Assembly (NCBI GenBank): GCA_963662655.2
Contig: CAXXTU010000002.1
Location: forward strand, 3,168,001 to 3,232,000
Source of the DNA: Candidatus Cloacimonadales bacterium
Lineage (GTDB): Bacteria > Cloacimonadota > Cloacimonadia > Cloacimonadales > JAIOQZ01
Length of the DNA stretch: 64,000 nucleotides
Reading direction: 5' to 3'
The stretch's first letter is position 1, and every line of letters starts with the position of its first letter. Positions 44,162 through 56,404 of this stretch are shown piece after piece. The notes under the pieces were generated by a model. The model saw nothing but the letters and a program-made list of their open reading frames with translations, searched no databases and was not told where the DNA came from. Both the position numbers and the translations under genes were made by a program.

Positions 44162-45043
44162 CTACGCTGCGTTCAATATCTCGTTCGGTGTGCGGTAGCC
44201 CTGCGTGATGATGAGCCGTTCTTCGTTGTAGATCCGAACTGCTTCCTCTACGTACTTCAGCGCGTCGTCGAAGTCCCTGAATCTCCGTTCCAGCCCCAAC
44301 TCGTGCTTCAGAATCCCGTTGATGCGCTCCGCCTTGGCGTTGTCGTAGCACTTGCCCGGACCGGTCATGCTGGTGCGATAGCAGTAGCGTCGCAGCGCGT
44401 TCTGGAAGCAGGCGCTGGTGAATTGCGTACCATGATCGGAGTGGTGGATGCAGCCTTTGATATCCACGGCTCCGGCATTGCGCAACGACCTCATCGCCCG
44501 TTTCAGAGAGAGCGCTGGACCATGCGTGCGCAGGTCGGGCTGCAGCGAATATCCCAGGATCGCGTCCGAGTACTGATCCGAGGTCAGCGAAAGGTAGGCG
44601 AATCCGCGTTGCAACCGGATGTAGGTGATGTCGCTCGCGATGATCTGGCCGACGCGGCGAGCGATGATGTCCTTCACCAGGTTCGGGTGTCGACTGCGGC
44701 TGCCCAGGCTCGTGCGGAGGTATGAGCGGTACGCCGTCGACAGCAGCCCGTAGTCGCGCAGGATGCCGAACAGCCGGTCGCGACCAACCTCGAGCCCGTG
44801 CGCCTTCAGCATGTATTGCAGCTTCCGCGCCCCGACGCGTGGCTGTTTCACGCGAATCTCGCGCACGGCGGATACGATCTCCTCCACCTCCGCCTGGAGC
44901 CGATGGAGCCGCTTCCTGTGCTGGTAGTAGCTCTGCTTGCTGCGACCGAACAAGCCGCAAATCACCTGCATGTTCGCGGCTACTTCTCTTTCTTTCGCGA
45001 CAGCTCGACATTCGGTGATAACAGCGAACCAGTCTTTTTTTTT
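44162..45043 (-). CDS. IS3 transposase OrfB (DDE), expressed by -1 frameshift
   Basis: GARKL, SDITY, HHSDHGTQF, CYDNAKAERINGILKHE, YNEER...GYRTP; A9G at 45034-45043. Confidence 0.88.
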   Translation of the reverse strand, partial: KKKDWFAVITECRAVAKEREVAANMQVICGLFGRSKQSYYQHRKRLHRLQAEVEEIVSAVREIRVKQPRVGARKLQYMLKAHGLEVGRDRLFGILRDYGLLSTAYRSYLRTSLGSRSRHPNLVKDIIARRVGQIIASDITYIRLQRGFAYLSLTSDQYSDAILGYSLQPDLRTHGPALSLKRAMRSLRNAGAVDIKGCIHHSDHGTQFTSACFQNALRRYCYRTSMTGPGKCYDNAKAERINGILKHELGLERRFRDFDDALKYVEEAVRIYNEERLIITQGYRTPNEILNAA

Positions 45044-45387
45044 GCGCTGATGCCGTACTTGCGCTCGGTCACGTTCACGATCGCCTGCAACGCGCAGTTC
45101 TCCAGCACTTTCTCGCTCAACGCAGCCTGCAAATCCTGCACCTTCTTCTCCAGCTCCGCGATTGTCTTGTCCTTGTAATCTTCTTTCGCCATGCGATCTC
45201 GCTTTTGAGCTCCCTTGCGTCGCGCCGGCTTCACGGCGTCCTCTTTGATCCAGCGATACAGCGTGCGAACGGATATGTCGTACTGCTCCGCGAGCTCCGC
45301 CACGCAGTAGTCGCTCGTCAGCACGTGATGCAGAACACGCGCCTTCACCTCGCAACGCTTCGCCCGTCGTTTCACATTTTCTCCCAT
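44980..45387 (-). CDS. IS3 transposase OrfA (HTH)
   Basis: GGAGG RBS; VAELAEQYDISVRTLYRW HTH; coiled coil; ends past the KKK slippery site. Confidence 0.88.
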   Translation of the reverse strand: MGENVKRRAKRCEVKARVLHHVLTSDYCVAELAEQYDISVRTLYRWIKEDAVKPARRKGAQKRDRMAKEDYKDKTIAELEKKVQDLQAALSEKVLENCALQAIVNVTERKYGISAKKKTGSLLSPNVELSRKKEK

Positions 45388-45435
45388 ACCTGAGCCTCCT
45401 TCGACCCAACGGTCAACCTATTTCAGGACGGGACA

Positions 45436-45451: not shown

Positions 45452-45545
45452 CTACACGGATGAAGCCCCGCTCATGCGATGGTTTTTCTTGACACTTAAT
45501 GAAGGTCGTGCGAGTTTCAATATACTTTAGACATTGGGAGAAAAT

Positions 45546-46349
45546 ATGCTGCTTTACGATTTTCCGGATGCGTACGATCTCTTTTACAACGAGAGTTTCC
45601 AGCAATCGACCCGAGACTTCTACAGCAAGTTTCTGCTTAAGAAAAATCTTCGCGAGGTACTCGATTGCACTGCCGGTTCGGGCCAGATGACAATACCCCT
45701 CGCCCAGATGGGCTACAGCGTAACCGCTTCGGATATCAACCGCAATATGATCCGCAAAGCGAGGCTGAACTTCGTGAAGCTCGATCTCATGGCGAACTTC
45801 GTTACCAGCGATATTCTCGAGCTCGAAGAGAAGGTTAAGAGAACCTTCGACTGCGTCATGAGCACCGGGAATTCGCTCGCCCACGTGAAGAACGATCAGC
45901 TCGAGGATGCCGTTCGCCAGATGGATAGCGTACTCAAGCCGGGTGGGATGCTCTACATCGATTCTCGCAACTGGGACTTGATTCTGGAACGACGGCAACG
46001 TTTTTATCTATTCAATCCGCTTATCCGGGATCGTGGGCGCGTCAATTTCGTGCAGGTGTGGGACTACAATACCGATGGTTCGATGGTTTTCAACTTCCTC
46101 GTCTTCGAGGAGATTGAAAACAAGATTGTCAGCAAGCGCCAGTTTTACGTGATTTACTACCCCTTTACAGTCGAAAGGCTGAGGGAAATCCTGGTCTCGA
46201 TGAACTACAGGAATATTCATTTCTTCAAGCTGGGCGATCCGAGCGTCACCGACCTGTCACAAATCGACTGGTTCGCCGTTACAGCAGAGAAACCCTTCCC
46301 CGAAACAGATGACAACAAGAAGAAAAAGATAAAAGGAGGAAGCAAATGA
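45546..46349 (+). CDS. Class I SAM-dependent methyltransferase
   Basis: VLDCTAGSG motif I, VTASDIN, FDCVMSTGNSLAH, LKPGGMLYID. Confidence 0.9.
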   Translation: MLLYDFPDAYDLFYNESFQQSTRDFYSKFLLKKNLREVLDCTAGSGQMTIPLAQMGYSVTASDINRNMIRKARLNFVKLDLMANFVTSDILELEEKVKRTFDCVMSTGNSLAHVKNDQLEDAVRQMDSVLKPGGMLYIDSRNWDLILERRQRFYLFNPLIRDRGRVNFVQVWDYNTDGSMVFNFLVFEEIENKIVSKRQFYVIYYPFTVERLREILVSMNYRNIHFFKLGDPSVTDLSQIDWFAVTAEKPFPETDDNKKKKIKGGSK

Positions 46350-46954
46350 AAGCTTTCAAACTACTTCTGGCTTTAGTTGCTGTTACACTGATTCTCACGG
46401 CATGCGGCGGTCCGGCCAAGACGGTCGAGCGCAGGGCGGTCGATGAGACCATCGACCTGAGCGGACGCTGGAACGACAGCGACCTTCAGCTCACAGCCGA
46501 GCAAATTGTGCGGGATGTTCTCTCTCGCCCGTGGCTGCCGGATTTCATTTCCGCAGAAGACCGAAAGCCGGTCGTGATCGTCGGTACGGTTCGCAATAAA
46601 ACCGCCGAGCATTTGGACACCGTGCCGCTGGTTAACCACATCGAGATGGAACTTATCAACAGTGGAAGGGTCACGTTCGTGGCGAATCAGCAGAAACGCG
46701 AGGAAATCCGCGGCGAGAGAATGGATCAGCAGACGCAATCCTCCGAGGACTCCGCGAAGAGACTCGCTGCCGAAACCGGCGCCGACTTCATGCTTCAGGG
46801 TGAGATCACCTCCATCGAGGACGCGGAAGGCGGACAGAAGGTGATCTTCTACCAGGTCGCGATGGAGCTCATCAATATCGAGACCAACGAAATCAAGTGG
46901 AAAAACACGAAGCAGATCAAGAAATTCATCTCTCAGAAAAGTTCAAAATTCTAA
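46346..46954 (+). CDS. lpoB: Penicillin-binding protein activator LpoB-family lipoprotein
   Basis: LTAC lipobox; DLSGRWNDSD, VRNKTAEHLD, GADFMLQGEI, YQVAMELINIETNEIKW. Confidence 0.8.
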   Translation: MKAFKLLLALVAVTLILTACGGPAKTVERRAVDETIDLSGRWNDSDLQLTAEQIVRDVLSRPWLPDFISAEDRKPVVIVGTVRNKTAEHLDTVPLVNHIEMELINSGRVTFVANQQKREEIRGERMDQQTQSSEDSAKRLAAETGADFMLQGEITSIEDAEGGQKVIFYQVAMELINIETNEIKWKNTKQIKKFISQKSSKF

Positions 46955-46965
46955 GGGGATCGTCC

Positions 46966-48351
46966 ATGAGGAAAATGAACCTTGTTGCGATTCTTGCGCT
47001 GTTCGCGTTGCTCGTAGGGTGCGGCGCGCCGAAGAAAGAGCTTCGCGAGATCGAGAAGAAGCTCGAGAAGAGACAGTTCGACCAGGCATCGCAGCAGGTG
47101 GAAGAGATCAAGGAATCCACATATTCCAAGAAGGATCGCGTGGTGTTCTATCTCGACGCCGGTACCGTCCATCACTACAACCGCGATTTCGACAAGAGTA
47201 ACCAGCGGTTGGAGGAGGCGGAACGAGCGATCGAGGATTTATTCACGAAGAGCATCAGTCGCGCTGCCGCTTCGTATATCCTCAACGACAACATAAAAGA
47301 ATACGACGGTGAGGATTACGAGAATATCTACCTCAACGTTTTCAAAGCGCTGAACTACGTTGGTAAAGACAAGTTCGATGAAGCATTCGTCGAGATTCGC
47401 CGCATTAACAATAAACTCAATCTGCTTGAAGACAAGTACAGGGATTTGGCGGACGAATACAACAAGTCCAAGGACAGCAAGGCGAAGGTTGAAGTGGGAC
47501 GTAACAGGTTCCACAATTCCGCTCTGGGAAGATGGCTGAGCATGTTGATCTATCGCGCGGAAGGCGACATCGACAACGCGCGCGTGGACCGCGAGGCCAT
47601 CGACGACGCCTGGAAGACCCAGAGCCATATCTATGGCTTCGGGAAGCCGGATTTAAGCCATTATCTCGATGCAACGGACAAGGCGCGTATCGATCTGATC
47701 AGCTTCGTGGGAAAGAGTCCCGAAAAGAAGGCGCACACGCTGTACATCCACACGGAGAACAACCTGATCGTATTTGCTTCAACCGCCGAGAATGAGGACG
47801 GAAGGCAGGTCATGACGAACCTTGCACCGATTCAGTGGCCGGGGATCGAGAAGGGGCTTCACTTCAAGTTCGAGATTCCGTTCTTCGAGCCAAGAGGAAC
47901 CATCGTGAAGAGCGTGAAGGTTCTCGTCGACGGCAAGCAGGCCGGAGAGCTGGAGCTTCTGGAAGACATGGAAAAGGTCGCGATCGAAACCTATCAGGTG
48001 AAGAAGCCGCTCGTCCTCATGAAAACCCTCACGCGTACGATCGTCAAAGGGCTGGTGGCTGCCGAGGGCAAGAAGCAGATGGAGAAGGAGATCAAGGATC
48101 CTCTTCTGGCGTTCGGGGCGAGGCTCGCCACGGATATCGCCGTCGACGCGACGGAGAAAGCCGATCTGCGATTGTCGCATTTCTTCCCCGCGAAGGCGAT
48201 GGTGAAGGAACTGGAGGTCACGCCCGGCGAGCATCAGGTATCGCTCGAATACCGCGGCGCAGGTGGCCAGCTTCTCTACACGCACGATCTGGGAATCAGG
48301 GATTTTCAAGCGGGTAAGCTGAATCTGCTGGAGTCGTACTATCTGAAGTAG
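46966..48351 (+). CDS. COG3014-like TPR lipoprotein
   Basis: LVGC lipobox; SNQRLEEAE, Y.GEDYE, EKADLR...FP; usual neighbour of lpoB. Confidence 0.75.
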   Translation: MRKMNLVAILALFALLVGCGAPKKELREIEKKLEKRQFDQASQQVEEIKESTYSKKDRVVFYLDAGTVHHYNRDFDKSNQRLEEAERAIEDLFTKSISRAAASYILNDNIKEYDGEDYENIYLNVFKALNYVGKDKFDEAFVEIRRINNKLNLLEDKYRDLADEYNKSKDSKAKVEVGRNRFHNSALGRWLSMLIYRAEGDIDNARVDREAIDDAWKTQSHIYGFGKPDLSHYLDATDKARIDLISFVGKSPEKKAHTLYIHTENNLIVFASTAENEDGRQVMTNLAPIQWPGIEKGLHFKFEIPFFEPRGTIVKSVKVLVDGKQAGELELLEDMEKVAIETYQVKKPLVLMKTLTRTIVKGLVAAEGKKQMEKEIKDPLLAFGARLATDIAVDATEKADLRLSHFFPAKAMVKELEVTPGEHQVSLEYRGAGGQLLYTHDLGIRDFQAGKLNLLESYYLK

Positions 48352-48387
48352 GATGAATCGTTGCTGCAACCCGATAAAGGAGATATA

Positions 48388-49401
48388 ATGCGTAAACTAA
48401 TCATAATCACATTACTTGTGTGCTCGGTTTTCCTGTTCGCGAAGAAGCAGGAAGCCCCCGAGTGGCTCGACAACCCCAAGTCGATCTACCCCGACGCGAT
48501 GTACCTGAGCGCTCTGGGTGAAGGCGATACGCGTCGCGGAGCTGAAAGCGACGCGGCGGGAAACCTCTCGCGCATCTTCGAGAGCAAGATCACCGTGGAT
48601 CAGACGTATCAGGAGCGCTACCGGGAATTGACCAAAGGCGTATCCTCCGAGACCGAGGAACTCTCGCAGATGGATCGCAATGTGGGTATCCAATCCGAGC
48701 AGACGCTCTTCAATATTCAGTTCGGGGAATCCTACACCGATCCCAAGGGACGCGTGCATATCGTCGCGTATCTCGATCGCATGAAAACGGGAGAAATCTA
48801 CAGCAGCAAGATCGAGGCGAACGCCAACCAGGTCACATGGTATCTGGGGCAGAAGAAGGAGACCGATGATCTCCTCAAGAAATACGCGCTACAGAACGCC
48901 GCGATTATCATCGCGACGAGCAATCGGGTTTTGCTGGAGCAGCTTCGCATCATCTCGCCGAATATGGCGGAATTCATCGACCTGCCCTACAAGATGACCG
49001 AGCTGGAGACGACCCTGCAAGAGATGGGGAAGAAGCTACAAATATCCATACAGATCAAGGGCGACGAGGAAAACAAGATTGCCAGCTCCCTGAAAGAGAT
49101 GTTAAGCGACGCCGGATTCAGTCTGGGCGATAGCGGTATCCTGAAAATCGATGGTGAAATCTCGTTCGAGATGGTCGATCTGGACAAGCAGGATCAGAAA
49201 TTCGTGCGCTGGGAGATCACGCTCGACCTGAACGATCAGCAAGGCGAAAACCTGATTCACTACTACGAAAAAGGACGCGACGGCCACATATCATATCCCG
49301 AGGCGATGGCACGCTCGATTCGAGAGATCGAGAAGAAGCTGAAAAAGCAGTTCATCGGTAAGCTGAACGATTACATCGATGGGTTAGTGATGACGAAGTA
49401 A
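48388..49401 (+). CDS. LPP20-family exported protein
   Basis: AAGGAG RBS; signal peptide; PEWL..P...YP...YLSALGEG....AESDA...LSRIFESKI. Confidence 0.7.
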   Translation: MRKLIIITLLVCSVFLFAKKQEAPEWLDNPKSIYPDAMYLSALGEGDTRRGAESDAAGNLSRIFESKITVDQTYQERYRELTKGVSSETEELSQMDRNVGIQSEQTLFNIQFGESYTDPKGRVHIVAYLDRMKTGEIYSSKIEANANQVTWYLGQKKETDDLLKKYALQNAAIIIATSNRVLLEQLRIISPNMAEFIDLPYKMTELETTLQEMGKKLQISIQIKGDEENKIASSLKEMLSDAGFSLGDSGILKIDGEISFEMVDLDKQDQKFVRWEITLDLNDQQGENLIHYYEKGRDGHISYPEAMARSIREIEKKLKKQFIGKLNDYIDGLVMTK

Positions 49402-49568
49402 TTGTGGTTTTGCCCGAGAGTCCATGCTACATTGTTCCTTGTACTGAAGTCGAATCGCCCATTTTCTGATTTTATTTCAGTAATAATGGGCGTTGTGGAA
49501 TAAATCTTTCATACTGTCAAAGACTTGCCAGAATGGCAAACGTATTTCTGCATTATTTGAGGGGAGAT

Positions 49569-50138
49569 ATGAAAAAGATAATCTTTGCGCTTGTGATTGT
49601 GCTGGCGATGTTTATTCTCGTGGCCAAGACGCAATCCTATCACCATGTGGAGCCCGGCAAGTGTATCGGCTGCACGCTGTGCGTTCAGAAATGCCCTGTT
49701 CAGGCAATATCCATGCAGGACGGCAAAGCGGTGATCGATCGCGAAAAGTGCATCCAGTGCGGTCTTTGCATCAAAGCTTGCCCGGTGACGGCCATCTCCG
49801 TCGTGGAAGAAGCCGCGGCACCGGATTCTCTTGCGGAACAACCGGATAGCGTCGATACGCCCAAGCAGGAAGAGCCATCCACAGGCATGATCGAGACACA
49901 GGAAGAACCTGCACCCACTGTGGAAGCCGTTGAAGAGCAGATTGCCTCGACTTACTATCACGTACACGATAATAAATGTATCGGTTGCATGGTTTGCCCG
50001 AAATCCTGTCCCGTCGATGCGATTCACATGAAGCAGGGCGTGGCCGTAATCGATACGGAAAAATGCATTAAATGCGGTCTATGCAAACGCGATTGTCCTG
50101 TTGCCGCGATCTCCGTGGAAGAGAAACAATCCAGCTAA
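49569..50138 (+). CDS. Exported tandem di-ferredoxin (four CxxCxxCxxxCP motifs) with an acidic Pro linker
   Basis: Sec-type signal MKKIIFALVIVLAMFILVA; CIGCTLCVQKCP, CIQCGLCIKACP, CIGCMVCPKSCP, CIKCGLCKRDCP. Confidence 0.88.
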   Translation: MKKIIFALVIVLAMFILVAKTQSYHHVEPGKCIGCTLCVQKCPVQAISMQDGKAVIDREKCIQCGLCIKACPVTAISVVEEAAAPDSLAEQPDSVDTPKQEEPSTGMIETQEEPAPTVEAVEEQIASTYYHVHDNKCIGCMVCPKSCPVDAIHMKQGVAVIDTEKCIKCGLCKRDCPVAAISVEEKQSS

Positions 50139-50165
50139 TGATATAAAAATCACCTTGGAGCTTTC

Positions 50166-53100
50166 ATGCGTAAACAACGTTTACTGCTGATTCTGATGCC
50201 GTTGCTCTCCTTCTTCTTGTTCTACTGCACGGACAAAATCAGCAAAAATCCCGAAAACGACGGCGACGTTCGCGTCGAGTACTCGAGCTGTACCGCCTGT
50301 TATGAGTGTATGGACCTGTTCAGTTGTCCGCAGAATGCGATCTACATCGATGAAATGCGTGGAACCGCCACCATCGATCCTGATAAATGCGTCCGCTGTA
50401 TGCGCTGCATCACCGAATTCACCTGCGAGTACAATGCATTCACCTTCAAAGAAGATTTGATTCCGCCTGCGCCCATCACGGATTTCAGTGCGGTTTCCGA
50501 TTCGATGGGAACGATCGACATCAGCTTCACCGCGACGGGTGACGATTCCACGTCAGGAATCGCCTGGCGATATGAGCTCAACCTGAAAAACGCAAGTGGT
50601 GAAGTACTGCTCCCCGATTTCCAGCCCAACGCGCCAAAGATCGCCGGTTTGAAGGAAACGTGGCACCTGAGCGGCCTGGATTCCCCTCAGACGGTTGCCG
50701 TTGGCGTAAACGTGTTTGACGATTGCGGTTTGTACGCCTCTTCGCAGACGTTAATCGTGGATATTTCTTCCGATTATCCCGATGTTACGGCTCCCTCTGC
50801 CATCACCGATCTGATCGCCCAGCCGGATGCGGATTATGTCACCCTATGGTGGACCGCTCCCGGAGATGACGGCGATGAAGGCACCGCGGCAGCTTACGAT
50901 ATTCGATACAGCCGGACGGCGATTGACAGCCTGAGCTGGGATCAGGCAAGCGTCTTCGAGAATACTATTGCCCCCACTTCTCAGGGTGTGAAGGAGACCT
51001 GCCGGATAACATTGCCGGATCAGGCGAACTACTACTTCGCCGTGCGTGCGCTGGACGATAGCGGCAATATCGCGAGTGTTTCCAACAACGCCCAGGCCGC
51101 CATGACGGCGGACGTTACTCCTCCCGACCAGATAACCACGCTGGTGGCCGGAAACGAGACGACAACCTCGGTTACGCTCACCTGGGAGGCTGTAGGCGAT
51201 GACGGAAGCATAGGGGTTGCCGACGATTACGTCGTGAAATACCACGTGTTGCCTATTACTGCGCAAAATTGGCAAGCGGCCACGACGTACGACGCAGAGA
51301 TGTCTCCTCAACCCGCCGGTGAGACGGAAGAACTCATAATAGAAAACCTGGAAGAAGGATTTGAATACTACTTCGCGGTCAAGGCCGTCGATAACGCCGG
51401 AAACCAGTCGGCGATCTCCAATGTTGCCCACACGCAAACCGTGGACATCCCCGATGAGACGGCTCCTTCTGCAATCGACGATCTGGTCGTGAGCAACACC
51501 TCGACCAGCACCGCGCAATTGCGCTGGACCGCCCCCGGCGGCGACGGCGATGAGGGCTATGCATTTCAATACGTCGTCAAGGCGTCCACACAACCGATCA
51601 CCATTGATAACTGGACTGCGGTCGACGAAATTCCCAATGATTTGTCGCCACAGGTTGCCGGTTCGCAGGAATCGTTCATCGTGACGGGCCTGGAGGCAAA
51701 TACAACCTACTGGTTTGACGTCCGTGCGGTTGACGACGCGCTGAACATCGCAGATCTATCCAACGTCGCGCAGGGACAAACGGCATCCGAAGACGACACC
51801 GTCGCTCCAGGAGCGATCACCGATTTATTAGCTCACGAGGATGATCCAAACATCCTTCTGACATGGACATCGACCGGCGATGACGTCAGCGAAGGGACCG
51901 CGTCATATTACGAAATCAGATATTCTTTCGAGACGATTACCGGTTCCAACTGGGCGGAGGCGACACTTCTGCAAAATCTCCCCATACCCGAAACGGCCGG
52001 AACGCAGCAGCAATACATTTTTACATCTCCGCAGCAAAACACTGCGTATTACTTTGCGATCAAGGCTTTCGACGATGCGCTGAACGCGTCGGAGCTCTCC
52101 AACATCGCGGAGGGAGTGATTGCGGACGATATCGCGCCCTCGCAGATCGACGACCTGCAAGCGACAGCCGGCACCTCGGACATCGAGCTGCAATGGACCG
52201 CTCCTGGCGACGACGGCGATGATGGTACGGCGTTTTCATACGAAATCCGCATGAGCACGGTTGCGATTACCCAGGCGAACTGGGACGATGCCCAATTGCT
52301 GGAAAATCCCCCGACACCTTCTACCGCGGGGACGGCGGAAAGCTACACGGTTGTTGCGCCGCAGCAGGATCAGACGCTTTTTTTCGCCATTCGTGCGACG
52401 GATGACGCGGACAATGTCTCGGCTGTGTCCAACAACGCGGAATCGGGAATCTTCGATACAACTCCGCCGGCGGATATTACGGATTTGGATGCGACGCAAT
52501 CCGGTGAGGAAGCGCTTCTGACCTGGACGGCTCCAGGAGACGACGGTTTTACCGGTACGGCGGAAAGCTACGAGATTCGCTATGCCACGACGATTATCGA
52601 CGAGACCAACTGGGCCTCGGCCACGCTTCTGAGCAATGCTCCATATCCTGAATCGGCGGGAACGCAGCAGCAGTTCTCGGTAGCAGGACTCACGGCGGAT
52701 ATCCAATACTACTTTGGAATCAAGACCCTCGATGACGCCGATAACCAGTCGGGGCTTTCCAACATCGCCGATGTCACGCTGGGCGACGACACGGTTGCGC
52801 CTGCCGCCGTGACCGATCTCGAAGTGGTGGAAAGCTATGTGAACCTCTCGACGATCCGTATCTCCTGGACAGCCCCGGGGGACGACGGCATTACCGGCAC
52901 GGCGGATCATTACGAGATTCGTTATTCGAACTTGCCCATCACCGATGCCAACTGGAGTAGCGCTTCGCTATTCGGCAGTCCGCCCGATCCGGCAAGCGCT
53001 GGAACCGCGCAGACGTTGAATGTGACCGGCCTGGATGAGGGTGAATTGTACTACTTCGCGATCAAGGCGTTCGACGAGATCGGGAATGCAGGTGACTGCT

Positions 53101-53312
53101 CCAATTCACCGGCAGGGAAGATCGTCTACACGATCAGCGCTTCGCAGTGTCGTGATTGCAACCATTGCATCAACCGATGCGATCAGCACGCGATATACGA
53201 TGCGGGTCCTTACAAGGCGATCGATCCCGAACTTTGCATCGCGTGCGGCGAATGCGATCCGTACTGCCCGTACAACGCGATCAGCCCAGCAGTTATAGCT
53301 TATAACGACTAA
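50166..53312 (+). CDS. Lipoprotein: 2[4Fe-4S]-type ferredoxin, 8 FN3-like repeats, 2[4Fe-4S]-type ferredoxin
   Basis: LFYC lipobox-like site; CTACYEC.....CP and CVRCMRC.....CE; eight P..I.DL...W.A.GDDG..G.A..Y.IRYS repeats; CRDCNHCINRC and CIACGECDPYCP. Confidence 0.88.
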   Translation: MRKQRLLLILMPLLSFFLFYCTDKISKNPENDGDVRVEYSSCTACYECMDLFSCPQNAIYIDEMRGTATIDPDKCVRCMRCITEFTCEYNAFTFKEDLIPPAPITDFSAVSDSMGTIDISFTATGDDSTSGIAWRYELNLKNASGEVLLPDFQPNAPKIAGLKETWHLSGLDSPQTVAVGVNVFDDCGLYASSQTLIVDISSDYPDVTAPSAITDLIAQPDADYVTLWWTAPGDDGDEGTAAAYDIRYSRTAIDSLSWDQASVFENTIAPTSQGVKETCRITLPDQANYYFAVRALDDSGNIASVSNNAQAAMTADVTPPDQITTLVAGNETTTSVTLTWEAVGDDGSIGVADDYVVKYHVLPITAQNWQAATTYDAEMSPQPAGETEELIIENLEEGFEYYFAVKAVDNAGNQSAISNVAHTQTVDIPDETAPSAIDDLVVSNTSTSTAQLRWTAPGGDGDEGYAFQYVVKASTQPITIDNWTAVDEIPNDLSPQVAGSQESFIVTGLEANTTYWFDVRAVDDALNIADLSNVAQGQTASEDDTVAPGAITDLLAHEDDPNILLTWTSTGDDVSEGTASYYEIRYSFETITGSNWAEATLLQNLPIPETAGTQQQYIFTSPQQNTAYYFAIKAFDDALNASELSNIAEGVIADDIAPSQIDDLQATAGTSDIELQWTAPGDDGDDGTAFSYEIRMSTVAITQANWDDAQLLENPPTPSTAGTAESYTVVAPQQDQTLFFAIRATDDADNVSAVSNNAESGIFDTTPPADITDLDATQSGEEALLTWTAPGDDGFTGTAESYEIRYATTIIDETNWASATLLSNAPYPESAGTQQQFSVAGLTADIQYYFGIKTLDDADNQSGLSNIADVTLGDDTVAPAAVTDLEVVESYVNLSTIRISWTAPGDDGITGTADHYEIRYSNLPITDANWSSASLFGSPPDPASAGTAQTLNVTGLDEGELYYFAIKAFDEIGNAGDCSNSPAGKIVYTISASQCRDCNHCINRCDQHAIYDAGPYKAIDPELCIACGECDPYCPYNAISPAVIAYND

Positions 53313-53328
53313 GAGATAAAGGATTCTC

Positions 53329-53565
53329 ATGAAACGAACGATTATTATTGCGGCGATCTTGATCGTTGCTTTATCGATACTGATTGCAGCAACCGAGACG
53401 AAACCGGAGGTCTTCCGGAAAGACTGTACAGGATGCGGTGATTGCGTAAAAGCATGTCCGGTGAAGGCGATAGAAGTCCACAATGGCAAGGCGGTGATCG
53501 ATAGCAGGAAGTGTATCAATTGCAAGCTCTGCACAACGAGCTGCACCTTCGGAGCAATCCGGTGA
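53329..53565 (+). CDS. Small exported 2[4Fe-4S]-type ferredoxin
   Basis: Signal MKRTIIIAAILIVALSILIA; CTGCGDCVKACP, CINCKLCTTSC. Confidence 0.85.
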   Translation: MKRTIIIAAILIVALSILIAATETKPEVFRKDCTGCGDCVKACPVKAIEVHNGKAVIDSRKCINCKLCTTSCTFGAIR

Positions 53566-53572
53566 GGCGCGT

Positions 53573-53845
53573 ATGAAGAAACTGCTGATCTATTCCGCTT
53601 TACTCATGATACTGCTTGGGCTTTTCATGACCGCCTGTGATAAAAAAGACTCGATCACGACATCCGCTTCCCCCTCCGCGTTTTACGAGATCGATAGCGA
53701 CGCTTGCATCTCCTGTGGGCGTTGTGTCGATGTTTGTCCATACAATGCCATCCAGTATGATGGGGAGGAGCCGGTCATCATCCAGACACGATGCAAGAGA
53801 TGTGGCGAATGTGTCTCCGTATGCCCGAAGGATGCGATCCAATGA
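53573..53845 (+). CDS. Small lipoprotein 2[4Fe-4S]-type ferredoxin
   Basis: MTAC lipobox; Ser/Thr linker; CISCGRCVDVCP, CKRCGECVSVCP. Confidence 0.85.
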   Translation: MKKLLIYSALLMILLGLFMTACDKKDSITTSASPSAFYEIDSDACISCGRCVDVCPYNAIQYDGEEPVIIQTRCKRCGECVSVCPKDAIQ

Positions 53846-55026
53846 GAAAAACCATCCTGTTTATCATCCTTGCAGGCATGAGTTGCGTTCTTCTCGGACA
53901 GACGGTTCTGAACTCCGAGATGGACAGCCGGGAAGGCTTTGTCGAGCGTTTATATCAATACTTCGATGTCCGGTTCGAGAATGGATTCGAGCTGAGCAAC
54001 ACCTTGTACATGAAGGTCAGCGAGGATCAGGACGAGCTGGAGCGGGATTACCTGAGAAATTACATTCGCGACAAGCTGCGTTTCTCCTTGTTCCGAGAGA
54101 GCTTCTATATTTCTTCGCACGTTGGAATTCAATACTATCACGACGAGCAGCACGAGACGCGTATCTCTGGTGCGGATGAGCAATACCGGCTCAAGAACGC
54201 TTTCTCCGGCGGTATTGATTTCTTCGGAACGTGGGACGGATTGGAGACGCTGCTCGAAGCGAGCTGGTTTGCGAACTACTATGATCGCTATGTGTTCAAC
54301 GACGCCGCGCAAAATTCCGATGATGATTGGGTCGTGAAGGAAGAGAAGAATCAGCTCGATAACGATGGAACCATCAAGGCGAGAATTGCCTATAAATTCA
54401 GCGATTATATCAAGCCGTTCGTGGAGGTGAATCACTTCAACGACATGAACGACATCGACACCTACGACTACACCGAGTACCGGCTCGGAAACCATTTGCT
54501 GAGCAAACTGGACAACCTGCATACTGTCGAGATGGAGGTTGCTGTCGTGAAGACGGACGCGTTCGAGAATCTTCCTGCCTATCTGGATTTCGATCTTCGT
54601 TTGACCAGCAAATATATCCATGACTGGATGTTCATCAACCGCGTCTCCGATAAAATCTGGAAGAACGATGACGAGAGCTCGAAAGCATACGGAAACGGTT
54701 TCTGGGAGTGTATCCTTCAGCATAATCTGAATTTCGATCGAGAGAACCGGGTCGACCGTTTCCTGATGGCGATCAAAAAGCATTTCGACGAGAACGTAAC
54801 CATCGCTCGCACTGGGTTGATGTACTACTTCGGGCCGTTCAGCCTTTACGGCGCATATCATTACTACTTCGGTAACGACCGTGTTAACAACTACAAGACC
54901 GGCATGGAACTTTCGTGGTACTACCCGGCTTACAGCGCGCGAATTTACTACGGCTTCTCGTTGATCGACGCGAGGTATGTCGAGAATACAACCGTTCACA
55001 GTATAAACATCGAGTTAGGCTATTGA
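53842..55026 (+). CDS. Predicted outer-membrane beta-barrel protein
   Basis: ATGA overlap with the upstream gene; signal peptide; many alternating aromatic/hydrophobic strands; C-terminal ...HSINIELGY resembles a BAM beta-signal. Confidence 0.72.
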   Translation: MRKTILFIILAGMSCVLLGQTVLNSEMDSREGFVERLYQYFDVRFENGFELSNTLYMKVSEDQDELERDYLRNYIRDKLRFSLFRESFYISSHVGIQYYHDEQHETRISGADEQYRLKNAFSGGIDFFGTWDGLETLLEASWFANYYDRYVFNDAAQNSDDDWVVKEEKNQLDNDGTIKARIAYKFSDYIKPFVEVNHFNDMNDIDTYDYTEYRLGNHLLSKLDNLHTVEMEVAVVKTDAFENLPAYLDFDLRLTSKYIHDWMFINRVSDKIWKNDDESSKAYGNGFWECILQHNLNFDRENRVDRFLMAIKKHFDENVTIARTGLMYYFGPFSLYGAYHYYFGNDRVNNYKTGMELSWYYPAYSARIYYGFSLIDARYVENTTVHSINIELGY

Positions 55027-55027
55027 G

Positions 55028-56404
55028 ATGATTCAATCGTTGGCTGAAGGTTTTTCGCTCGGACTTGCGACCGGAATTGTTTGCCTCTCCACTTGCACGC
55101 CGATTTATCTGCCCTATCTGCTGAGCAGCGATCGCAAGCTGCTGAAGAGCTTTGGGGTGATCCTGGAGATATCCGCTGGAAGGTTCTTCTCTTATCTCAC
55201 GTTCGGCGCGATCGCGGGATTTCTGGGAGCGCAGATCGGTCAGGTGAATCGCGATTTGTTCACCGCGATTGCCTACATCATGCTCTCGGTGTATTTGATT
55301 CTCTCCGCTGTGAGGTCGCGGAACGAGCATAAAAAATGTGCGGTTCCCAAGATGGCTGCCATGACGCGCAGTCCTTTCGTATTAGGGATTCTAACAGGTA
55401 TAAACTTTTGCCCGGCTTTCCTCATCGCGCTTTCCAATGCGCTCAACCTCGCAGGCGCGTTGAGTGGAATGCTGCTGTTCATGGGATTTTTCTTCGGAAC
55501 TTCGCTGTTCCTGATCCCTTTGGCGTTGGCGAATTTTCTGACGAAGATCCGCCAGATGAAGCAGATCGCTCAGGTTGCTTCCGTGCTGATCGGTATCTGG
55601 TTCATCGGCAAGGGGCTTTTCATGCTCTATGGATACGCGGTGGGTACGGAGGTCAACAATCCGTTCGCGCCCGGCAAGGAGCTGGCGGTTGTTTCATCCG
55701 AAGCGGATATGGCGTATTTCACGGATTTGAGAGATTCGCTACAAGTTCGTACGGATGAGGCTGTCGATCTGCTAGAATTCAGCCCGGGTGGAGCCTTGGA
55801 GAAGAGGAAATCCGTGCTTTATTTCGTTAACCGGACACTGGTCGAGCAGGATTCAGCGGCATTCGAGGGGATGGATTATTTCGCAGTAGAAGCCGGCTAT
55901 CCCATCGGCGAGATGATGATGTATCTCACGACGGTCTTTCAGGGGTGTCCGGACGAAAGTGAATATGGTGACGGGAACAACAACCTGTGCTCCACATGCA
56001 CCCTGACGAAGGGACTTGATTTCTCGGGAAGGTTCCCGGTTGATTTCGAACAAAAAGAATTGTACATGATGGATGTGTTTGCTCCCGGAAATCAACTGGT
56101 CATTCTTGCGGACAACGACGATCCGTACTGGAAAGAACTTCAGAACACTTTGCAAGCCAATATACAGAAACCGATTCAGTTCATGCCTTTCGATCCCGGT
56201 AAAGACTTGCCGAACGAGGAGACGACTGTCTATATCATACCACAATCGGCCGAGCAGATAGCTCAGGACTCGGGGTGGATCGATTCGCTTCATACGATTG
56301 TCGTACCGAAAGGGTATTCGCCTCAGACCATCGCGGGATTTCTCAAGAAGTTCACGTTCAAGGTGGAAAATAGGCTAAGCTGGCATTTCGATGCCGACAA
56401 ATGA
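55028..56404 (+). CDS. DsbD/CcdA-like (DsbD_2/TauE-like) membrane protein with a C-terminal soluble extension
   Basis: About 6 TM helices; GIVCLSTCTP and GINFCP membrane cysteines; GRFFSY.TFG...GFLG pattern; tail contains C...CSTC. Confidence 0.75.
   Translation: MIQSLAEGFSLGLATGIVCLSTCTPIYLPYLLSSDRKLLKSFGVILEISAGRFFSYLTFGAIAGFLGAQIGQVNRDLFTAIAYIMLSVYLILSAVRSRNEHKKCAVPKMAAMTRSPFVLGILTGINFCPAFLIALSNALNLAGALSGMLLFMGFFFGTSLFLIPLALANFLTKIRQMKQIAQVASVLIGIWFIGKGLFMLYGYAVGTEVNNPFAPGKELAVVSSEADMAYFTDLRDSLQVRTDEAVDLLEFSPGGALEKRKSVLYFVNRTLVEQDSAAFEGMDYFAVEAGYPIGEMMMYLTTVFQGCPDESEYGDGNNNLCSTCTLTKGLDFSGRFPVDFEQKELYMMDVFAPGNQLVILADNDDPYWKELQNTLQANIQKPIQFMPFDPGKDLPNEETTVYIIPQSAEQIAQDSGWIDSLHTIVVPKGYSPQTIAGFLKKFTFKVENRLSWHFDADK

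Follow-up and report, generated by a model that had tools for sequence, protein, structure and literature searches.

The operon described here, six genes named A to F, lies in a 64,000-nucleotide stretch (the window; contig CAXXTU010000002.1, positions 3,168,001 to 3,232,000 of the forward strand) of the genome of a Candidatus Cloacimonadales bacterium. It is read as encoding a heme-free porin-ferredoxin conduit, in which exported iron-sulfur (Fe-S) proteins would carry electrons through an outer-membrane beta-barrel; a probability of about 0.45 is given to this reading, cluster binding and docking being predictions. The envelope Fe-S system that the genes represent is real and conserved, and apparently had not been described before. 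The initial annotation had not recognised the operon as a known system, and the literature searched agrees with it in containing no published description, with the reservation that supplementary tables of earlier surveys may list the genes; the available part of a Cloacimonadota genome paper (PMC8542988) makes no mention of the operon, and the accessible portions of two further articles (PMC9324843; PMC11334425) contain nothing on it. The host genome is 98.95% complete and was compared with 232 genomes of Cloacimonadota, among which 73 loci, picked among matches of E or F, were mapped, 55 of them containing E; locus and genome counts are non-independent events because the genomes are kin.

All six open reading frames (ORFs) are on the + strand, separated by 27, 16, 7, -4 and 1 nt as had been claimed, and the count of 4+4+2+2 = 12 ferredoxin motifs in A to D was reproduced. 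Pfam Fer4 was matched above cut-off by all four proteins (E 4.6e-29 for A, 2.3e-11 for B, 1e-13 for C and 7.9e-19 for D), and each domain has two conserved CxxCxxCxxxC motifs, as expected of the 2[4Fe-4S] type, with the canonical cluster motifs fully kept. Gene C (53329-53565) encodes 78 residues, a Sec-type leader followed by one such ferredoxin, and is a core member predicted to be periplasmic; all 8 of its ferredoxin Cys are invariant in 22/22 aligned orthologues. Gene D (53573-53845), also of the core, encodes a 90-residue lipoprotein with one ferredoxin, the predicted outer-membrane partner of the barrel, in which 7/8 ferredoxin Cys are invariant and C77 is kept in at least 90% of 19 orthologues. 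Genes A and B are accessory. The product of A (49569-50138, 189 residues), a predicted periplasmic carrier, has a Sec-type leader and two ferredoxin domains whose four motifs contain 16 Cys, and an acidic stretch of ~50 residues with a net charge of -12 links the two domains; in many relatives A is a one-ferredoxin variant or absent. The product of B (50166-53312, 1048 residues), likely a surface arm, is a lipoprotein in which 8 fibronectin type III (FN3) repeats covering ~900 residues (fn3 match, E 1.5e-41) part two ferredoxin pairs, one N-terminal (residues 42-87) and one C-terminal (995-1034); full-length orthologues have ~4-14 repeats by motif count, and short forms also occur. As noted at the outset, A to F contain 0 CxxCH heme motifs; they also contain no [ST]GA[ST] motif, and no twin-arginine pair occurs within the first 35 residues of any of them.

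The export-type leaders ascribed to A to D were borne out by a home-made heuristic of charge and hydrophobicity, used in place of SignalP, with plain leaders in A and C and lipoprotein leaders in B and D. A basic n-region and a hydrophobic core are present in 22/22 C and 19/19 D orthologues (mean Kyte-Doolittle 3.5), the lipobox Cys of D (Cys22) is invariant in 19 aligned orthologues, and among the 35 ferredoxin-motif ORFs listed for the host genome this leader pattern was seen only in A to D. In B the lipid Cys is Cys21, and it is followed by C-x-D in 22/23 correctly read leaders. Were the N-terminal segments instead anchors holding the ferredoxins in the cytoplasm, in the manner of RnfB, the barrel would be a bystander; the initial annotation had named such cytoplasm-facing anchors as grounds for giving up the conduit. 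This explanation draws on the fact that Fe-S proteins are usually matured in the cytoplasm and exported by the twin-arginine translocation (Tat) pathway, yet TatC is missing here. It is most improbable, given the basic n-region in 41/41 C and D leaders as against the uncharged anchor of the host RnfB, the invariant lipobox Cys, the existence of fusions to FN3 repeats and of paralogues with type IX secretion system (T9SS) tails, and the tight synteny with the barrel. Every other explanation considered below implies that metal-cluster folds mature outside the cytoplasm without Tat.

The T9SS-tailed paralogues (leader, ferredoxin and tail) occur in 7/55 operons, mostly where the long B is absent, and their fused tails provide independent support for the export of ferredoxins. 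The host genome encodes one away from the operon (locus L176, C2:1563092-1563874, - strand), with a leader, a ferredoxin pair and a tail that scores 37.1 bits against TIGR04183 (cut-off 23); secretion to the cell surface is predicted for its product. SprA and PorV, parts of the T9SS, are present in the host genome, and the available text of PMC11285876 states that the system may occur in Cloacimonadota. By their signals, ferredoxin domains appear to be addressed to three outer compartments, by a plain leader, as a lipoprotein, and by a leader combined with a T9SS tail. As a separate observation, ~200 host ORFs match the T9SS-type-tail-containing profile (203 with the G profile), a figure that includes some ferredoxin-only matches.

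Gene E (53842-55026, 394 residues) is the third core gene and encodes a predicted plug-less outer-membrane beta-barrel of 20 strands. The AlphaFold2 model, obtained with a 14-sequence alignment, has a pLDDT (predicted local distance difference test) of 84.9 and strands starting at residue 19, and the protein ends in Tyr; this confident predicted fold upholds the earlier assignment as an outer-membrane barrel, insertion in the membrane being part of the prediction. E has no Pfam match, no Pfam or NCBIfam family is common to 28 aligned members, and sequence searches of the PDB with E and F gave nothing below E 0.028. In fold searches E matched tied generic barrels, at 6-11% identity throughout, the best being TonB-dependent receptors (Z 17.4, root-mean-square deviation (rmsd) 4.9, 363 aligned residues, ~8% identity); MtrB (Z 15.5, rmsd 6.6, 351 aligned) stood amid generic barrels, and the ferredoxin receptor FusA (4zgv) gave Z 15.2. 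The C-alpha diameter predicted for E by a standard barrel formula is 35-39 A, as against ~48 A for 26 strands, and a ferredoxin domain measures 25-30 A, so that the modelled barrel would have room for one.

The barrel is widespread in the phylum: a single sequence found E in 20/232 genomes and an alignment in 117, of which 112 were kept after dropping five weak partial matches (G010, G094, G154, G168 and G201, E >= 4e-5). F is present in 95/232 genomes, 77 having both F and E, 35 E only and 18 F only. The neighbourhood comparison proposed in the initial annotation confirmed that the barrel co-occurs with ferredoxins across the phylum; D is directly upstream of E in 52/55 loci, the misses being two contig ends and one decayed operon, and the order C-D-E is found in 51/55 barrel loci. 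C-D-E is considered the core because this synteny holds while A, B, the T9SS-tailed ferredoxin, the NapH-like gene and F vary. The idea of six genes as one conserved unit was therefore not sustained beyond C-D-E, F being absent from 35/112 barrel genomes and the barrel from 18/95 F genomes. In metagenomes, E precedes F in 49/70 F loci by a hand count in which some loci repeat genome contigs. Range outside the phylum rests on two metagenome contigs with divergent versions of the operon, L149:237-7600 and L151:169-4124, in which similarity to the barrel is weak (hhalign probability 28% and 76%); L149 carries an extra FtsX/MacB permease with an ATPase and a long NapH-ferredoxin fusion. A lead from the Atlas points to Fermentibacterota (score 0.85).

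The adjacency of D and E in 52/55 loci would also be expected if the barrel were a translocon placing the lipoproteins D and B on the surface, with the clusters acting as redox or oxygen sensors or as sacrificial scavengers. Surface-export signals of Bacteroidota have an acidic residue after the lipid Cys, and an acidic residue does stand close behind that of B; a further lead is one look-alike cluster in the Atlas with SlipAM (PF04575) in 19% of its members. Slam (type XI) likewise joins a barrel to lipoproteins. The barrels of Slam, however, have 14 strands and a tetratricopeptide repeat (TPR) domain, whereas E has 20 predicted strands and no TPR, and 0/28 E members match SlipAM; moreover, the core member C is non-lipidated and the operon has no conserved signalling gene. 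A translocon is accordingly held to be very unlikely.

The normal course for Fe-S proteins is cytoplasmic maturation followed by export through Tat. TatC was not found in the host genome, and it scores above cut-off in only 8/232 genomes of the set and in 2/112 barrel genomes. Without Tat, the proteins would leave through Sec in an unfolded state, and loading of any clusters would have to follow export. Unfolded export of Fe-S proteins is suggested a second time by an AmmeMemoRadiSam trio (locus L175, C2:1160512-1165215, - strand), detected in a scan of leader-bearing ORFs, in which a radical SAM enzyme (C2:1164127-1165215; TIGR04337, 392.8 bits) has a Sec-type leader and the adjoining MEMO-AMMECR1 fusion an export-type leader. 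The clade of this enzyme is found in 42/232 genomes (E < 1e-130), in 0 of the 8 TatC genomes, and 28/30 of its loci read have the leader, with no twin-arginine pair. These observations lead to a broader proposal, held tentatively and with rather more doubt than conviction: Tat-less Cloacimonadota would export ferredoxins and even a radical SAM enzyme unfolded via Sec and load their clusters in the envelope, and extracellular electron transfer would run through a C-D stack in the 20-strand barrel, the first heme-free Fe-S conduit of this kind, which would end at the surface in ferredoxins on an FN3 arm or secreted by the T9SS.

Radical SAM enzymes need a low-potential reductant, and the exported ferredoxins might supply one to periplasmic or surface enzymes and serve thiol upkeep, without passing electrons to outside acceptors. 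The leader-bearing radical SAM enzyme beside its leader-bearing MEMO-AMMECR1 fusion fits such a reductant supply, as does the persistence without the barrel of sets formed by A, F and a NapH-like gene (N). The match in distribution is nevertheless poor, since of the 42 genomes with the radical SAM clade only 19 have the barrel, F being present in 28, and families f3 and f6, in which C-D-E is common, lack the clade; the tightest pairing of all, that of D with the barrel, is left unexplained. Reductant supply is thus considered unlikely as an account of the operon. The narrower candidate, the radical SAM enzyme as client of the C-D-E core, was rejected on distribution, with the barrel in only 19/42.

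Gene F (55028-56404, 458 residues), accessory, encodes a six-helix inner-membrane protein of PF13386 (DsbD_2; E 4.1e-20, 73 bits, cut-off 24.9), which is its sole Pfam match at E <= 0.01. The earlier description of F as DsbD/CcdA-like stands as regards six predicted helices with mid-membrane Cys, and does not stand as regards family, F having no PF02683 (DsbD) match; the resemblance is one of superfamily. The model comprises six helices and two C-terminal periplasmic alpha/beta domains, Foldseek gave no match at E <= 0.001 and no solved relative was found. While CcdA has one Cys pair, F has four invariant Cys (C19, C23, C104 and C128), in addition to its extra periplasmic alpha/beta domain(s), and no thioredoxin partner is conserved, a thioredoxin gene following F in G118 and G119 only. 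F is situated apart from A to E in the same-genus genomes G115-G117. Residues ~305-348 (55940-56070) form a genus-level insert with three extra Cys between the duplicated periplasmic domains, also present in G120. F as an obligatory maturase was rejected, F being absent from 35/112 barrel genomes and from 14/42 genomes with the leader-bearing radical SAM enzyme.

A lead for a maturation role of F is found in genomes G228 and G223, where a divergent short F (31-33% identity) overlaps by 4 nt a DUF59/SufT-type Fe-S assembly gene (PF01883, E 5.7e-18 and 4e-16; L058:6054-7096 and L162:6734-7776, both - strand) whose product has an N-terminal hydrophobic leader. This overlap, together with the database annotation of F, a PF13386 protein, as TauE/SafE, bears on Fe-S or metal trafficking, in which the ferredoxin folds would carry clusters or metal, the barrel would pass them or their cargo, and F would be a transporter or maturation factor. 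The best fold matches of E, TonB-dependent metal receptors, and the Fur-like and FeoB-like genes that follow one locus (L084, by sequence reading) point the same way. On the other side, E is plug-less and shows 6-11% identity to its fold matches, strong matches of the leader-bearing DUF59 gene were found in 2/232 genomes only, the host not among them, the maps read show no conserved iron-uptake genes near the operon, and both canonical cluster motifs are wholly retained. On balance trafficking is regarded as improbable.

The porin-ferredoxin conduit is favoured by a layout like that of porin-cytochrome conduits, by the D-E and C-D-E synteny, by the three compartments to which ferredoxin domains are addressed and by the lack of a CcmC/CcsA match, and, as far as gene neighbourhoods go, by what lies beside the operon in relatives. 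A NapH-like gene (PF12801) stands next to it in 15/55 barrel loci, with opposite orientation in 3 of these, and in L151 (31% GC) the order is FMN-binding (flavin mononucleotide) protein, NapH-like, F, C, D and a barrel distantly and weakly similar to E. The host orthologue N lies away from the operon (C2:1473516-1474361, E 5e-96); no apbE, FMN-binding or DUF2271 gene is in the host operon, and the ApbE, FMN-binding and N genes are elsewhere in the genome. Pairs of NapH-like and FMN-binding proteins are transmembrane electron-transfer modules, and DUF2271 is a flavinylated domain and substrate of ApbE, according to the part of PMC8238504 at hand. In family f3, DUF2271 fused to a T9SS tail is encoded near the barrel (L073:2623-3705, L077:8989-10086 and L088:1896-3077), at <=5 kb in 28/39 genomes with both, 27 of the 28 without F, and the gene is co-directional with B in G121. 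The exact [ST]GA[ST] motif occurs in only 2/7 DUF2271 copies read, being usually TSAS rather than TGAS; the fusion protein is a possible surface flavoprotein. The host genome also encodes a 167-residue lipoprotein (C2:1780124-1780624, - strand) with the flavinylation-like motif DAITGAT and no NCBIfam match.

In the proposed mechanism, C and D would carry electrons through barrel E, their clusters having been loaded after Sec export, with C at the periplasmic end and the lipoprotein D docked in or on E. B, on its flexible FN3 arm, or a T9SS-tailed ferredoxin would be an optional surface terminal, and A an optional periplasmic shuttle. Two optional inner-membrane links may be added: N, which would deliver electrons from the cytoplasm, and F, which would keep the Cys of the apo-proteins reduced or supply metal or sulfur. 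The direction proposed as most likely is outward, for the disposal of fermentative electrons. The Fe-S analogue of the porin-cytochrome layout first suggested thus keeps its export leaders, barrel, co-occurrence and neighbours, and loses the six-gene unit and the role of A and B as wires.

Several points weigh against the conduit. MtrB ranks twelfth among the structural matches of E, the best ones being generic barrels, and the lumen-facing residues of E, with a mean of +0.4, do not complement D in net charge. Neither A nor B can conduct end to end, because of the long variable FN3 spacer in B and the acidic linker in A, and their split ferredoxin pairs require one to assume separate partners or a flexible arm. 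Several of the 35 barrel genomes without F are 99% complete, and in the 14 loci of family f3 that were read and have C-D-E only, none of the inner-membrane redox genes known from the operon was seen. Conversely, N-A-F sets or F alone persist without a barrel in the 18/95 genomes mentioned, so that N, A and F must be of use where there is no conduit. In many cases the DUF2271 gene is convergent or lies on the opposite strand, and its position may reflect inherited synteny; no DUF2271 was found in the host genome. Finally, we know of no pathway that assembles clusters outside the cytoplasm, and the Cys of the exported ferredoxins could thus bind Zn or other metals.

To our knowledge, the described outer-membrane electron conduits all use hemes. 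The operon resembles the porin-cytochrome conduits, such as Geobacter Pcc (OmbB/OmaB/OmcB) and Shewanella MtrCAB, in clustering genes for a periplasmic carrier, a plug-less barrel and a redox lipoprotein, the surface partner being the variable part in both. It differs in lacking heme motifs and multiheme carriers, and no cytochrome c assembly gene was found: CcmC/CcsA (PF01578) was not detected in the host genome, 99% complete, where no ORF has more than 2 CxxCH. Its carriers, ferredoxins of the 2[4Fe-4S] type, have 60-90 residues, so that a single chain would not reach across the membrane, and no profile of the MtrB/PioB or Pcc families matches any of the 28 E members. The 20 strands predicted for E, encoded beside the carriers, lie in the range of 18-28 taken for conduit barrels, and fall within the 18-22 predicted for Pcc barrels in the available portion of PMC4245776. 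From Tat-exported Fe-S proteins, A to D differ in having no twin-arginine leaders in a genome where TatC was not found. With TonB-dependent receptors, including FusA, the operon shares a large outer-membrane barrel linked to ferredoxin folds; those receptors have 22 strands and an N-terminal plug, whereas E has 20 predicted strands and no plug, and the ferredoxins here are products of the cell's own genes. The flavinylation-associated clusters, as presented in the accessible part of PMC8238504, are alike in their NapH-like PF12801 and DsbD-superfamily proteins and, in relatives, in the adjacent FMN-binding or DUF2271 genes, and differ in that the operon has Fe-S carriers, an F of PF13386 rather than PF02683, and an E without a DUF3570 match.

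Cloacimonadota are common in digesters and anoxic sediments. Under the heme-only view, fermenters without cytochromes are taken to be incapable of electron exchange across the envelope, pili excepted; direct interspecies electron transfer by Cloacimonadota has been proposed from pilin evidence alone, as far as the available text of PMC7382037 goes. If the conduit reading is true, a three-gene Fe-S conduit present in about half of the phylum's genomes would be a testable machine for such transfer. Separately, canonical ferredoxins and a radical SAM enzyme with Sec leaders in Tat-less cells would imply extracytoplasmic cluster loading, contrary to the textbook rule.

Upstream of A, a hairpin with a perfect 6 bp stem is located at 49525-49539 and was not seen in three same-genus genomes; a sigma-70 scan gave 0 sites and Rfam 0 matches. 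The genes preceding the operon in the window are not conserved next to it in relatives, and they comprise transposase-like ORFs, judged by translation (44162-45409, - strand), followed by a run of methyltransferase, LpoB, unknown lipoprotein and LPP20 genes (45534-49401).

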